The notes beneath the pieces were generated by a model. That model was not told the origin of the DNA, did not search any database, and worked only from the letters and a program-made list of their open reading frames with translations. Shown one piece after another: positions 22,225 to 26,338 of a stretch of 39,042 bases of DNA; the stretch's first letter is position 1; every line of letters begins with the position of its first letter. The translations under genes and the position numbers were made by a program. The stretch is from Escherichia phage CurroJimenez_Bas106, in the sequence record PQ850599.1; one strand, 5' to 3'.

Positions 22225-22521
22225 TCAGTCATTACTGATAGCGCCATAGCGTGAGCGGTAATTACGCAGGCGCGGGTCGATATATTCAGGGAGGTTGGTA
22301 TATGTGGCTTTGCGGAATGGTCGGATTGATGTCTGGTAAATTCGCTCTCGTTCTTCTTTCTCTGCAAGCCATATACAATGGCGAAATTCCTTTTCCTCTT
22401 TCGTTTCCTGCGGTAGCGACATTATCAGGTCGTAGTTTTTTCTGAATTTATCCAGCACCTCCGATACGGAATTGCCGGAACAGCGGCGCGCGTCGTCCGC
22501 ACCATACAGAGGCGCTGGCAT
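22225..22521 (-). CDS. hypothetical protein (98 aa)
   Basis: ATG with GGAGA SD; charged protein; no family recognised. Confidence 0.5.
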
Positions 22522-22537: not shown

Positions 22538-23086
22538 TTATTTAGCTAACTTTTTCCAGATCGCTGAAACGTATTTGGCTTGGTGAATGGCATCATCAAG
22601 CGCGTTGTGGCGAGTTCCTTTGAATGGCATATCTCGCTTAGGGTCGAATCCTATTACCTTCCCAAGTTCGACGATTGTTCTTACGTCGCGGTCATTCCAC
22701 CACTGCCACGGAACTGGCTGCCCTGTCAGCGAATAACTGTTTCGGAGAATAACGCAGTCAAATGATGCTCCATTCCCCCAAACCTGAACGAATTTGTGGT
22801 TAGCGTTCTTTATGATGAATTCAGATAACCATGAAAGAGCCGTTGAAAGCTCCTGAGTGTTGCTGGTTAGCGATTTTCTGGCTTCTTCACTCTGTTCCAG
22901 CCACCATAAAATCGTTGAAGCGTCAGGACGCGCCCGATATCGCATTGATGACTCAAGCGAGATATTTACCGAGAACTCTTCTCCTGTTTCTCCGGTATTC
23001 GGGTCAAAGAATACCGCCCCAATAGAAATAACTGGCGCGTATGGCCCGTTGCCCATTGTTTCAAGGTCAACCATCAAGTGATTCAT
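22538..23086 (-). CDS. 3'-5' exonuclease, DEDDh (DnaQ/RNase T-like) family
   Basis: Motifs MVDLETMG (Exo I), GNGASFD (Exo II) and H..ALDDA (Exo III); AAGGA SD 6 nt upstream. Confidence 0.75.
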   Translation of the reverse strand: MNHLMVDLETMGNGPYAPVISIGAVFFDPNTGETGEEFSVNISLESSMRYRARPDASTILWWLEQSEEARKSLTSNTQELSTALSWLSEFIIKNANHKFVQVWGNGASFDCVILRNSYSLTGQPVPWQWWNDRDVRTIVELGKVIGFDPKRDMPFKGTRHNALDDAIHQAKYVSAIWKKLAK

Positions 23087-23094
23087 GTAAGTCC

Positions 23095-23574
23095 TTAAAT
23101 TGCGTGAATAGCGTGACGAGGGAAGGGGAGAGTTACTGGTTCCTCGTCTGGGTAGATAGGTTTGTTATGTTTGTGCCACTCGACATGACATGACTTGCAG
23201 AGCCACATCACATCGGTTGGTTTGCTGTAGTCGCAGTGGTGCGCCTGTGGTTTACATTCTGATCCGCAGCACTCACATTGTGGTGGTCGGATTAGCTTAC
23301 CGTCGCGCAAAAAATTACCCACAATGATGTGGGCTTTTCTTTTCCATGGGTTGCTCTGAATGAACCGATTTTTGGCTGCGTTACACCGTTCTCTTCCGCG
23401 TTCCGATGATTGATATTCTCTCCTTGCTGATACTCGATGTGGCAATCCAGCGCGTTCTTTGTCGTATTCAGCCAGGCAAGCCCGGCAAGCGGCAGTTAAT
23501 CCATCTCTGGATGCTCTTCTGATTTGAAAGTCCCTTTCTTCCTTCTGTTGATGGCATCTTGAGCAGATTTTCAT
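23095..23574 (-). CDS. HNH endonuclease
   Basis: Cys-rich with C..C...HH...C..CH (CGSECKPQAHHCDYSKPTDVMWLCKSCHVEWH) HNH/zinc motif. Confidence 0.65.
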   Translation of the reverse strand: MKICSRCHQQKEERDFQIRRASRDGLTAACRACLAEYDKERAGLPHRVSARREYQSSERGRERCNAAKNRFIQSNPWKRKAHIIVGNFLRDGKLIRPPQCECCGSECKPQAHHCDYSKPTDVMWLCKSCHVEWHKHNKPIYPDEEPVTLPFPRHAIHAI

Positions 23575-23583
23575 ATTCAGCTC

Positions 23584-24057
23584 CTAGAACGGAATATCCG
23601 AATCGTCGAAGTTCATAGGTGGTTCGCTGTGATCCCCCTGCTGCTGAGGTTGCTGTCTTTGTTGCTGACCGCTATTTCGCTGAGGAGAAGACTGTTCATT
23701 GCCTCCTTGCTTGCCACCAAGCATTTGCATGGTTCCACCAACGCCCACGATGACTTCGGTAGTGAACCGATCCTGTCCGCTTTGATCCTGCCATTTTCTT
23801 GTCCGCAATTTGCCTTCAAGATAAACCTCAGAGCCTTTTCGCAGATATTCGCTGGCAATTTCTGCCAGTTTCCCGCTCATTACCACGCGGTGCCACTCCG
23901 TCTGCTCCTTTTGCTCTCCAGTTTGCTTATCACGCCATTGTTCTGACGTAGCAACTGTAAGGTTTGCAAATGCCGTTCCTGATGGTGAATATCTGATTTC
24001 TGGATCATGCCCAAGGCGACCAATAATGATCACCTTATTTACGCCTCTGCTTGCCAT
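23584..24057 (-). CDS. ssb: single-stranded DNA-binding protein
   Basis: OB-fold N-terminus ([18 protein letters not shown]), Gln/Gly-rich linker and acidic tail ending DDSDIPF. Confidence 0.9.
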
Positions 24058-24765
24058 TTATGCCGCCTGTTTTAGCTCGTTAACCCTGATGTTCATTACC
24101 TGAACGCATTTAGCCTGCGCATCCTCATTGCCAGCCATTAATTGCCAGTCACGCTGATAACGCTCGATGAGTTTTTTCTTGTCAGTTTCTTTCGATGCAT
24201 AATCGCTGAAGTCTTTCAGGATTTGTTCGCAGTCAACCGATGGAGATTTCTGGTTGGTATTTTCTGGTGATGGTTTGTTATCTGATGCTGGGATTGCCCA
24301 TCCTGGCAGCGATGGAGGGAGCCAGTAAAATCCTGTTCCATCCTTCAGTTTTGCCCTGTGCCACCCCTGATTTTTATCGAGAGATGTTTGTGCGAAACCT
24401 TCCTCAAGGTTATACAGATACCGACCGATTCCCCACTGAACGGCAGCGCGCTTCATTGCACCGGAACGACCACCTTTGACGGCTTCTACCTGCGTGTTTT
24501 CAGCAGCATCCCATTTGGTTACCCATTCGGAATCAATCTTGATTGATATGCCGCATTCAACTCCGCCGTTGTTGGGAATATCGCGGTATTCATTGCGCCA
24601 TCCTGCTTTGCCGCAAACATCGTCCAGGCGTTTCATGATTGCCCGGTTCGTGACATAAGCCAGCACCATAGCCCACACCTTGCCATCGCGTGTTTTACCG
24701 CTTTGCTGTATTCGCCATTCGATATCTTCAGGGCTGAATGGCTCATCGAATTTATTCAAATCCAT
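24058..24765 (-). CDS. single-strand annealing protein: Rad52/Sak-like core with Erf-like C-terminal tail
   Basis: N-terminal region carries KRAAVQWGIGRYLY (Rad52-family signature); last ~55 aa (EQILKDFSDYASKETDKKKLIERYQRDWQL...KCVQVMNIRVNELKQAA) match my recollection of the P22 Erf C-terminus. Confidence 0.7.
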   Translation of the reverse strand: MDLNKFDEPFSPEDIEWRIQQSGKTRDGKVWAMVLAYVTNRAIMKRLDDVCGKAGWRNEYRDIPNNGGVECGISIKIDSEWVTKWDAAENTQVEAVKGGRSGAMKRAAVQWGIGRYLYNLEEGFAQTSLDKNQGWHRAKLKDGTGFYWLPPSLPGWAIPASDNKPSPENTNQKSPSVDCEQILKDFSDYASKETDKKKLIERYQRDWQLMAGNEDAQAKCVQVMNIRVNELKQAA

Positions 24766-24773
24766 AATTCACC

Positions 24774-24962
24774 TCAGAATGGTAATTCGGATGGGGAGGA
24801 AAGAAATTCGCGCTCATTCATGCGCTCTCTTTGTGCTTGCCATAAACAAAGTTGTTTCTTTGATTTATCTCCCGCTTTACGCCAGTAACGAGCCTCAGCA
24901 ATGTGATATTCTCTTTTTAATCGACTTAACTCTGGAGTTTTCGCCAGCTCTACCGGAATCAT
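24774..24962 (-). CDS. hypothetical protein (62 aa), in the position of P22 arf
   Basis: Between kil and the annealing-protein gene; 4-nt overlap with kil stop; assignment by position only. Confidence 0.4.
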   Translation of the reverse strand: MIPVELAKTPELSRLKREYHIAEARYWRKAGDKSKKQLCLWQAQRERMNEREFLSSPSELPF

Positions 24963-25235: not shown

Positions 25236-26204
25236 TTAGTAGGTTATTTTTGTTGCGAATACTTTGCCTTTTACGATGGCTGTTATGATATTTTTAGCAA
25301 CATCTTCTGATGCGCCAACCTTGATAAGGTCAGCAAGTATTTTGTTATTTACTTCTTTCCGGTGAGCTTTATCCTTTGCTCTACACTCTTCTTCTTCCTT
25401 GATTCTTTTTTCTTCTGCTATTCTGGCTTGCTCTTTTGCTTCAGCCTCGCGCCGGATTCGTTCAGCCTCCTCCTGTGCTTTTCGGCGTTCTGCTTCAATT
25501 GCCGCCTGCTTTTCTCTTTCAGCTCGTTCTGCTGCCTCTTTTGCTTCGCGCTGTGCTCGTTGCTCGGCTTCAATGCGTTCACGCTCTGCACGTTCCGCTG
25601 CGGCCTTAGCTTCTGCTTCTCGCCTTGCTGCTGCTTCAATTTCGGCTTTTGCCTTTGCTTCGGCTTCTGCTCTGGCTTTCTCTTCAGCTTCTCTTTTTAA
25701 GCGTTCTTCATGCTCTCGCTTTTCCTGCTCCGCTTTGAGTCTTGCCTCTTCTCTTTGGCGGTCAAATTCGCGATCCATCAAAATAGCTATTTCATGGTCA
25801 GACTCAATTTGCTTTGCGAGAGCTTCAGCTGCTGCCTTAGCTTCTTCTTCGGCTTTAATCCGCGCCTGTTCCTCCTCATAATCAGTAAGAGGCTGGCGAG
25901 CCTTGGCTTTCAGTTCATCAAGGCGATCGCGCACTGTCTTGCGGTTGGCATCAATTAGCTTTGGAATTTCCTTCAGTTCAGCAACAAGGTCTTTGCCAAG
26001 ACCATCGAGATATGTTTTCGTCTGCGCAACTTTATACGCCAGAGAAGCGATCTCCTTTCTGCCCTTTGCCGTTGTGATATCAGGCACAAAGGACATAACT
26101 TCACGTTCAACCTTTTGAAGGATTTCTTCAATCTGGTCTGCAGACTGAAATACAGTCATTGCATTTGCTTTTTCAATAAAAACTAAGTCTGTTACTTCAC
26201 TCAT
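25236..26204 (-). CDS. hypothetical coiled-coil protein with Glu/Ala/Arg/Lys-rich low-complexity core
   Basis: Start at ATG 26204 (MSEVTDLVFIEK...) with GGAGG 5 nt upstream; ORF-track start at 26258 is a TTG running into the upstream terminator hairpin. Confidence 0.65.
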   Translation of the reverse strand: MSEVTDLVFIEKANAMTVFQSADQIEEILQKVEREVMSFVPDITTAKGRKEIASLAYKVAQTKTYLDGLGKDLVAELKEIPKLIDANRKTVRDRLDELKAKARQPLTDYEEEQARIKAEEEAKAAAEALAKQIESDHEIAILMDREFDRQREEARLKAEQEKREHEERLKREAEEKARAEAEAKAKAEIEAAARREAEAKAAAERAERERIEAEQRAQREAKEAAERAEREKQAAIEAERRKAQEEAERIRREAEAKEQARIAEEKRIKEEEECRAKDKAHRKEVNNKILADLIKVGASEDVAKNIITAIVKGKVFATKITY

Positions 26205-26216
26205 ATATCCTCCATC

Positions 26217-26243
26217 AAAAAAATCGCCCTCACATCGGAGGGC
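26217..26243 (-). terminator. rho-independent terminator (minus strand) upstream of the coiled-coil gene
   Basis: Minus strand CCCTCC-GATGTG-AGGG(C) hairpin followed by GATTTTTTTG. Confidence 0.6.
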
Positions 26244-26338
26244 AAAGAAGATTTCCAATAATCAGAACAAGTCGGCTCCTGTTTAGTTACGAGCGACATT
26301 GCTCCGTGTATTCACTCGTTGGAATGAATACACAGTGC

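Follow-up and report, generated by a model that had tools for sequence, protein, structure and literature searches.

Rad52-like core and P22 Erf-type C-terminal domain joined in the annealing protein of Escherichia phage CurroJimenez_Bas106

The single-strand annealing protein (SSAP) encoded by Escherichia phage CurroJimenez_Bas106 is a two-domain mosaic, in which a Rad52/Mgm101-type core is followed by a linker and by a C-terminal domain of the type present in P22 Erf. The evidence speaks against both a conventional Erf and a plain Rad52-like protein that merely resembles Erf. Its gene lies in a stretch of 39,042 nucleotides (PQ850599.1) that was analysed as a whole and is called the window here, within a region that we take, with a probability of roughly 0.85, for the homologous-recombination module in the early-left operon of a P22/Sf6-like temperate phage, its annealing protein being a mosaic born of domain swapping. 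The genes of the module are arranged in the order orf62, SSAP, SSB, HNH-like protein, DEDDh exonuclease and Abc2 (Table 1). The open reading frames of SSAP, SSB, the HNH-like protein and the exonuclease occupy exactly the positions given in the first-pass annotation, all of them on the minus strand. That annotation had described the annealing protein as flanked by the other three; the three genes are indeed close by, but all of them are located downstream and not on both sides.

Table 1. Features of the recombination module, in coordinates of the window
Feature	Position	Strand	Description
SSAP gene	24058-24765	minus	ORF, 235 aa; Sf6 gp28 homologue
Annealing core of SSAP	24298-24765	minus	SSAP residues 1-156; predicted Rad52/Mgm101-like fold plus FYWxPPxLPxWAxP element
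Linker of SSAP	24232-24297	minus	SSAP residues about 157-178; low-complexity, disordered; swap junctions fall here
C-terminal domain of SSAP	24061-24231	minus	SSAP residues 179-235; Erf-type, predicted three-helix bundle
SSB	23584-24057	minus	Phage SSB of bacterial type, 157 aa; PF00436, TIGR00621
HNH-like protein	23095-23574	minus	Cys/His-rich putative endonuclease (Sf6 gp26/ES18 type), 159 aa; phrog_2340
DEDDh exonuclease	22538-23086	minus	3'-5' exonuclease (Rv2179c-like/DnaQ-like), 182 aa; PF16473, phrog_255
Abc2	22225-22521	minus	Modifier of host RecBCD; PF11043, phrog_656
orf62	24774-24962	minus	62 aa; directly upstream of SSAP; phrog_1723 at 1.6e-33

Residues 4-136 of SSAP match the Pfam family Rad52_Rad22 (PF04098; E=4.8e-26, 91.9 bits against a cut-off of 20.3), and an ERF match was absent from the protein even at E<=0.1. 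The Rad52/Sak-type motif noticed earlier in the N-terminal part, KRAAVQWGIGRYLY, was recovered at residues 105-118, within the PF04098 match, and is almost unvarying among 33 homologues. SSAP is 97-99% identical to gp28 of Sf6, matches phrog_1097 along its full length and has 5,593 homologues at E<=1e-5, with PF04098 present in 120 of 120 among the matches listed. In the AlphaFold2 model, whose pLDDT is 81.9 for the whole protein and mostly 80-95 over the core, SSAP is predicted to adopt the RAD52-like beta-beta-beta-alpha DNA-binding fold. The top PDB matches retrieved for the core by Foldseek were Mgm101 (9yi9) and the RAD52 N-terminal domain (5jrb, 1h2i), with probabilities of 0.96-1.0, but with E values of only ~1e-3, TM scores of 0.26-0.45 and 12-17% identity. 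The eukaryotic RAD52 N-terminal domain, yeast Mgm101 and lactococcal phage Sak share the Rad52_Rad22 family with this core, whereas the conserved FYWxPPxLPxWAxP element and the Erf-type tail are peculiar to SSAP in that comparison. A conserved WW-like element ahead of the linker might, as a smaller possibility, represent a second, unrecognised interaction module. Assignment as a WW domain was rejected, the match to the Prp40 WW domain being weak (E=0.069) and Pfam giving none even at E<=10.

In agreement with the first-pass annotation, which had related the last ~55 residues to the C-terminus of P22 Erf, the last 56 residues of SSAP align without gaps with Erf residues 150-205 at 75% identity. 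BLASTP extended the alignment to SSAP 157-235 and Erf 134-205 (E=2e-30, with 63% identity across 79 residues), and outside this tail it detected no similarity to P22 Erf; a tail-only tblastn query likewise recovered P22 erf at E=2e-23. The core of P22 Erf (205 aa, residues 5-146) belongs to ERF (PF04404, 157 bits), a Pfam family other than that of the SSAP core. At the DNA level, the sole similarity to P22 erf spans positions 24228-24058 of the window, comprising the last 56 codons and the stop at 77.8% identity, and it begins abruptly at SSAP codon 180. The two genes correspond in position, each lying upstream of abc2 in the early-left operon, whereas P22 carries arf and abc1 and lacks SSB and nuclease genes.

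The linker is disordered over about residues 160-177, with pLDDT below 50 at residues 163-176, and it differs in both length and sequence among SSAP homologues. The C-terminal domain is predicted to form three helices (residues 179-192, 196-209 and 214-234) and, when modelled alone, reached a pLDDT of 89 and a pTM of 0.74. Within it Arg227 is invariant, and Phe186, Tyr203 and Trp207 are conserved. No Pfam model covers it, either in SSAP or in P22 Erf. Its dN/dS against P22 is 0.05, and the values range from 0.05 to 0.20 for the tail and from 0.03 to 0.12 for the core; given this range for the tail, the coding sequences indicate that it is functional and kept by purifying selection. Relatives of the domain beyond the annealing proteins of these phages were sought by several routes. 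Foldseek searches of the PDB with the domain model brought up generic three-helix bundles alone, none with E below 1; the top matches in BFVD included Sak3, ERF, RecT and 'recombinase', but at E=0.6-3, and these resemblances between models are suggestive only. Weak matches of the tail profile to colicin coiled coils among PDB sequences (E=0.005-0.02) were read as chance helix similarity, and homology to the C-terminal domain of lambda Beta (PDB 6M9K) was rejected at an hhalign probability of 0.9%. A word-indexed protein search with the 73-aa tail yielded no more than 14 short fragments, which gave no picture of domain architectures, and exhaustive HMMER against 1.84 billion representatives only 17 matches, a library this large being unsuited to so short a domain.

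Domain shuffling, which had been proposed from the sequence of this phage, was supported by a survey of ~240 related phage loci, found with single tails as queries and scored for gene content in 221 cases. These loci are highly redundant prophages of E. coli and Salmonella, and the counts given here are therefore not independent events. Among 80 loci with the P22-type tail, the core was Rad52-like in 76 and of the ERF family in four. Between P22 and two loci (L092 and L109), homology runs through arf into the first erf codons, disappears over the entire core and linker and resumes at erf codons 150-156 to continue through abc1 and abc2, which corresponds to a replacement of the core only. The reciprocal event, a replacement of the tail only, is seen in locus L090, which is P22-like solely in a 153-nt segment of the C-terminal domain (98.7% identity) with a Rad52-like core on one side and an SSB gene on the other. 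Likewise, the core of HK022 matches Pfam ERF (151 bits) and is 92% identical to that of P22, while the tails share only ~42% identity, and the tail of Klebsiella phage GZ7, borne by an ERF core, is 61-69% identical to Enterobacter, Leclercia and Erwinia tails borne by Rad52-like cores. Shuffling is thus supported by the core-only and tail-only replacements and by the presence of the tail on both kinds of core, together with the sharp boundary at the DNA level. As these comparisons show, recombination in the linker moves core and tail independently between phages, by which one tail has come to be carried by both ERF-family and Rad52-family cores.

The alternative to a chimera is vertical descent from a common ancestor with P22 Erf, the core having diverged beyond recognition and the tail having been conserved. 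Lopes et al. 2010 (PMC2896510) lend this some plausibility by uniting Sak, Erf and Red-beta within a single Rad52-like superfamily. However, precisely where the C-terminal domain begins, DNA similarity that is undetectable in the core rises to 78-99% identity, both flanks of the replaced core are homologous between P22 and the two loci mentioned above, and the same core occurs with different tails as the same tail does with different cores. Vertical descent would moreover demand a less constrained core, the opposite of what the dN/dS values indicate, and we consider it extremely improbable.

The genes accompanying SSAP agree with a recombination module, and most of their assignments in the first-pass annotation stood. 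The SSB, whose gene starts immediately after the SSAP stop codon, was identified by PF00436 (1.1e-38, 131.9 bits), by TIGR00621 (181 bits, cut-off 54) and by its acidic C-terminal tip, ...FDDSDIPF, and an SSB gene is located directly downstream of the SSAP gene in 80/80 loci with the window-type tail. The exonuclease matches PF16473 over its full length (2.9e-73, 245.7 bits) and displays the motifs VDLE, NGASFD and HNALDD, in the arrangement DxE ... D ... Hx4D; its gene is an optional cassette, present in 42 of the 221 scored loci and absent from Sf6. The HNH label is the least secure of these assignments: the protein matches phrog_2340 ('endonuclease') at 5e-47 and shows by eye a CxxC...HH...CxxCH...H pattern (CECC...AHHCDY...LCKSCHVEWH) in which the asparagine position is apparently substituted, but it had no match in Pfam, NCBIfam or PDB sequences. 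This gene is also an optional cassette, in only about one quarter of the related loci. Abc2 matches PF11043 over its full length (2.4e-61, 204.4 bits). At the other end of the module, orf62 occupies the position of P22 arf, and none of the surveyed loci was scored as having both there.

By analogy and on the basis of co-occurrence, it is plausible that the Erf-type tail constitutes a partner-interaction domain, and its co-occurrence across loci points to an SSB, of phage or host origin, as the partner more than to Abc2, Abc1, Arf or the nucleases. In the mechanism that we propose, Abc2 would bind the host RecBCD and convert it into a resection machine, as the known biology of its family implies; SSB from phage or host would coat the exposed single strand, and rings of the SSAP core would bind the coated strand and carry out its annealing with a complementary strand, with the C-terminal domain as the docking adaptor of SSAP and the HNH-like and DEDDh nucleases as optional accessories. 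The model for such docking is lambda Beta, in which a small helical C-terminal domain tethered to a core of the Rad52 superfamily binds both lambda Exo and the final ~9 amino acids of SSB (PMC11611040). That domain shares no detectable sequence or profile homology with the tail and is absent from its Foldseek PDB matches, so the comparison is an analogy only. Binding of the C-terminal domain to the acidic ...D-I-P-F tip of SSB, in the way of its unrelated lambda counterpart, has in our estimate slightly less than an even chance of being correct.

Arf, Abc1, the phage SSB, the HNH-like protein and the exonuclease are each missing in many loci with near-identical tails. Two tail types can be told apart by the gene that follows: after type A it is always a bacterial-type SSB or Abc1, and after type B it is orf127, ending in ...YDDSIPF, in 79/79 loci. 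Where Abc1 comes next to a type A tail, a host SSB is available. The Erf-type tail could tentatively be regarded as a portable adaptor linking any Rad52-superfamily core to a particular SSB, type A to the bacterial type (host SSB or phage SSB-1) and type B to orf127 (the HK022/HK97-type SSB). Were this true, the distribution of tail subtypes would follow the host gene pool and the type of SSB rather than the core, and tail swaps would offer a simple route for moving annealing proteins between recombineering hosts. The pairing of tail and SSB types could also reflect the mere adjacency and joint inheritance of two genes. Besides, host SSB (...FDDDIPF in E. coli), phage SSB-1 and orf127 end in almost the same tip, and the tip alone therefore cannot explain the existence of two tail types. 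That the phage SSB tracks the Rad52-like core was discarded, being refuted by 43 loci with a Rad52-like core and Abc1 but no SSB, as well as by one ERF-core locus with SSB.

Other roles for the tail were weighed against SSB docking. The tail might dock SSAP on Abc2 or on Abc2-modified RecBCD, loading it directly onto the resected strand. Among the partner genes of the module Abc2 is the most constant (217/221 loci, besides P22, HK022, Sf6 and the window), and these modules usually have no 5'-3' exonuclease of their own, which points to RecBCD-Abc2 as the resection partner, Abc2 being known to hijack RecBCD (PMC5928155). Docking of this kind would parallel the binding of lambda Exo by the lambda Beta C-terminal domain. 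The co-occurrence data speak against it, since Abc2 proteins of >90% identity pair with both tail types, themselves only ~35% identical, and near-identical tails accompany Abc2 variants only 61-97% identical; in addition, four ES18-like loci bear the tail with Abc2 absent within 2.5 kb, no Abc2 match accompanies the tail of phage GZ7, and Abc2 works with lambda Bet, whose C-terminal domain is unrelated, going by the title of Murphy 2000 as cited in PMC5928155. We thus regard this role as unlikely. Less likely still is an action within SSAP itself, for instance in the control of ring assembly or DNA release, or in stability. Such a role would agree with purifying selection on a tail for which no partner is strictly co-inherited, and also with yeast Mgm101, whose ssDNA binding and ring stability depend on a short tail at the C-terminus (PMC3655812). 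A specific internal contact is nevertheless hard to reconcile with the presence of the same tail on two cores without detectable pairwise similarity, and with the variable disordered linker that separates tail from core. Moreover, Erf fragments lacking the C-terminal domain reportedly still form rings and bind DNA (Poteete et al. 1983).

The two-domain structure removes a conflict in annotation, PHROGs and RefSeq naming the protein 'Erf-like' by its tail alone while Pfam and NCBI assign it to Rad52/Rad22 ('Rad52/Rad22 family DNA repair protein'). Work from 2025 on lambdoid recombination modules explicitly set 'shuffling of partner interaction domains' aside from its analysis (PMC12315714), and the survey of loci presented here narrows the candidates for the partner of the Erf C-terminal domain. 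As an SSB adaptor, should it prove to be one, the tail could serve to retarget annealing proteins in recombineering. The chimera itself is already known and common; it is textbook lambdoid mosaicism, published in 2004-2008. The epsilon34 genome paper describes exactly such a combination of Rad52 core and Erf tail, including the idea of partner interaction, and points to "Erf domain swaps" noted before in Sf6 and ES18 (PMC2629481). Sf6 gp28, epsilon34 gp36 and ES18 gp49, the 'Erf-like' proteins of P22-like phages in PHROG 1097, are the same protein as SSAP, with a Rad52-type core and an Erf-type tail, and their genes are likewise followed by SSB and Abc2. The module of the window carries both nuclease cassettes, whereas a single one is present in each of two relatives, the HNH-like gene in Sf6 and the exonuclease in epsilon34.

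The window is a mosaic temperate phage genome of P22/Sf6-like (Lederbergvirus-type) organization, of E. coli or Shigella, whose nearest records (Escherichia phages Huey, N7 and IME10, and Shigella phage Sf6) share 96-98% identity over a query coverage of only 34-79%. Its recombination module sits within the early-left operon on the minus strand, in the order cIII and kil, orf62 (a 62-aa ORF), the 235-aa single-strand annealing protein (SSAP), SSB, an HNH-like protein, a DEDDh exonuclease and abc2. All elements described by the first-pass annotation were recovered in place.

Coordinates of the features discussed
Feature	Position	Strand
orf62	24774-24962	minus
SSAP	24058-24765	minus
NQGWHRAKLKDGTGFYWLPPSLPGWAIPA element (SSAP residues ~131-159)	24289-24375	minus
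SSB	23584-24057	minus
HNH-like protein	23095-23574	minus
DEDDh exonuclease	22538-23086	minus
Both nuclease genes	22538-23574	
abc2	22225-22521	minus
Sf6 gp33 homologue	25236-26258	minus
ORFs of 179, 214 and 193 aa	20295-22053	minus
orf127 (also in locus L005)	L003:2686-3069	

The Rad52-like core and Erf-like tail previously proposed for the SSAP were both borne out. Pfam Rad52_Rad22 matched residues 4-136 with 91.9 bits (threshold 20.3), and Pfam ERF, which covers residues 5-146 of P22 Erf as taken from a P22 record, gave no match in the 235-aa protein. BLASTP aligned only SSAP residues 157-235 with Erf residues 134-205 (63% identity, E=2e-30), the last 56 residues aligning ungapped at 75% identity. 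Likewise, DNA similarity to P22 erf was confined to window positions 24228-24058, that is, the final 56 codons and the stop (77.8%); abc2 and cIII/kil form separate blocks of homologous DNA. An AlphaFold2 model, for which 33 homologues served as input (mean pLDDT 81.9), predicted three parts: a core that ends near residue 155, a linker in which pLDDT falls under 50 (residues 163-176), and a three-helix bundle (179-192, 196-209 and 214-234) which, modelled by itself, reached pLDDT 89 and pTM 0.74. Foldseek related the core to PDB folds, Mgm101 and RAD52 being the best, with probability ~1.0, yet with E ~1e-3 and TM 0.26-0.45. Among homologues the core is strongly conserved, with an invariant FYWxPPxLPxWAxP element at its end, the linker is variable in both length and composition, and the C-terminal domain is less conserved than the core (mean column identity 51%). 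No Pfam family covers this domain in the window SSAP or P22 Erf, and no solved structure matched the tail.

The family-invariant element NQGWHRAKLKDGTGFYWLPPSLPGWAIPA comes after the Rad52 core and before the linker, and its aromatic-to-W-x-x-P spacing is WW-domain-like. A profile search of PDB sequences gave a weak match to the Prp40 WW domain (E=0.069), Pfam WW did not match even at E<=10, and AlphaFold2 gave only two of the three strands expected for a WW domain. The element may be where ring subunits touch one another.

The Rad52-core/Erf-tail chimera is already known, since it is described in the epsilon34 genome paper (PMC2629481), and the window SSAP is of the Sf6 gp28, epsilon34 gp36 and ES18 gp49 type (PHROG 1097; 5,593 homologues at E<=1e-5 in a large protein collection). 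A 2025 survey of lambdoid modules reported these components too, DnaQ-type and HNH nucleases among them, and left partner-interaction domain shuffling 'beyond the scope' (PMC12315714). What is added here is the exact position of the junctions, locus counts, estimates of selection, a model of the structure and a shorter list of partner candidates.

Our survey supports the proposal that the annealing core was swapped while the tail was kept, as core-only and tail-only replacements occur and the same tail is found on ERF and Rad52-like cores. We gathered 240 IMG/VR loci with the window, P22 and HK022 tails as queries and scored each by tblastn for cores, tails and neighbour genes. In all 80 loci with window-type tails the core was Rad52-like (97-99% identical) and an SSB gene came next; of the 80 with P22-type tails, only 4 had an ERF core and 76 a Rad52-like one. 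When P22 was compared with loci L092 or L109, DNA homology ran from arf into the first erf codons, was lost across core and linker, and returned at erf codon 150-156 to continue through abc1 and abc2, which is a clean core replacement. By contrast, P22 and locus L090 had in common only a 153-nt segment of the C-terminal domain (98.7% identity), a tail-only block that in L090 has a Rad52-like core on one side and an SSB gene on the other. HK022 and mEp213 combine ERF cores 92% identical to that of P22 with a tail (type B) only ~35-42% identical to the window/P22 tail (type A). The tail of Klebsiella phage GZ7, on an ERF core, is 61-69% identical to Enterobacter, Leclercia and Erwinia tails on Rad52-like cores and only 45% identical to the window tail; it is a second subtype common to both core families. 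Purifying selection acts on both domains, with dN/dS of 0.03-0.12 in the core and 0.08-0.20 in the tail (0.05 for the tail between window and P22). Given the swap junctions, the core and tail recombinations and these selection estimates, we reject the alternative of vertical descent in which the core diverged fast.

Gene layouts of the 221 loci in which 2.5 kb or more follows the tail
Core	Tail	Downstream genes	Loci
ERF	B	orf127, Abc2	74
Rad52-like	A	SSB, Abc2	43
Rad52-like	A	Abc1, Abc2	42
Rad52-like	A	SSB, Exo, Abc2	34
Rad52-like	A	SSB, HNH, Abc2	12
Rad52-like	A	SSB, HNH, Exo, Abc2 (window)	8
Rad52-like	A	SSB, HNH, without Abc2 (ES18-like)	4
ERF	A	Abc1, Abc2 (P22)	2
ERF	A	SSB, Abc2	1
Truncated, not scored	A	SSB, Abc2	1

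The slot right after the SSAP gene is taken by SSB, Abc1 or orf127, and both nucleases are optional cassettes between SSB and abc2. As to the neighbours named by the first-pass annotation, SSB and the DEDDh exonuclease are solidly identified by Pfam, and backing for the HNH label is confined to membership of a PHROG family and a Cys/His pattern seen by eye. This protein, widely annotated as 'endonuclease/HNH', had no Pfam, NCBIfam or PDB sequence match; its N-terminal half weakly matched PHROGs labelled Lar-like restriction alleviation protein and endonuclease VII. The window joins two nuclease genes, one of them putative, in one module, a layout found in 8/221 loci; Sf6 lacks the exonuclease cassette, and only three phages with two same-function genes in the recombination module were reported in the lambdoid survey (PMC12315714). 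Essentially identical SSAP genes (L006-L085) adjoin SSB alleles ~97% or ~67% identical to the window SSB, so SSB is itself a swappable cassette.

In the recombination pathway, Abc2 makes host RecBCD a resection enzyme (PMC5928155); according to the literature on these families, SSB would cover the single strand and Rad52-superfamily rings would anneal complementary strands. Lambda Beta is the only case in which a C-terminal domain has been shown to bind partners (Exo, SSB tip; PMC11611040), and its C-terminal domain has no detectable homology to the tail. Since Arf, Abc1, phage SSB, the HNH-like protein and the exonuclease are each sometimes missing beside near-identical tails, none is an obligatory partner. 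Abc2 is nearly always present, which would favour Abc2/RecBCD; however, the same Abc2 (>90% identical) accompanies both tail types and does not co-vary with them, and we rank this reading next after SSB, as rather unlikely. Less probable still is that the tail acts inside the SSAP itself.

Tail type, on the other hand, tracks SSB type with zero exceptions in 237 loci, a redundant set: tail A pairs with a bacterial-type SSB or with Abc1 (host SSB being available), and tail B with orf127. SSB is therefore the favoured candidate partner, at a probability we place near 0.45. Two caveats apply: all three SSB kinds end in almost the same tip, and the link may simply reflect joint inheritance of adjacent genes.

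The unannotated 127-aa orf127, between erf and abc2 in HK022-type phages, including mEp213, stands beside a type B tail in 79/79 loci. It has a Gln-rich stretch, ends in the signature SSB tip ...YDDSIPF, and had no Pfam match; we infer that it is probably the type which Casjens, Smith and co-workers call 'SSB-1b' (PMC12315714). Directly upstream of the SSAP gene, in the position of P22 arf, orf62 (phrog_1723, labelled 'recombinase') ends in ...SSPSELPF, which bears a faint resemblance to an SSB tip. Arf and orf62 were never scored together at that position in the surveyed loci, and orf62 could be a functional analogue of Arf.

Elsewhere in the window, the Sf6 gp33 homologue, annotated 'TolA' in mEp213, had no Pfam match. 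It contains a very long Glu/Ala/Lys/Arg-rich predicted coiled coil, which coincides with the most extreme AT skew of the window (-0.41). Its mechanical ORF starts at TTG; as the PHROG alignment begins at residue 19 (MSEVTDL...), that ATG is probably the true start. Finally, three consecutive ORFs have overlapping stop and start codons, the 179- and 214-aa products having similar N-termini (MSNIDKQALREIAAAAV and a 17-residue counterpart) and the 179- and 193-aa products similar C-terminal ends. The three resemble a tandem array of modular Ead/Ea22-type paralogues.
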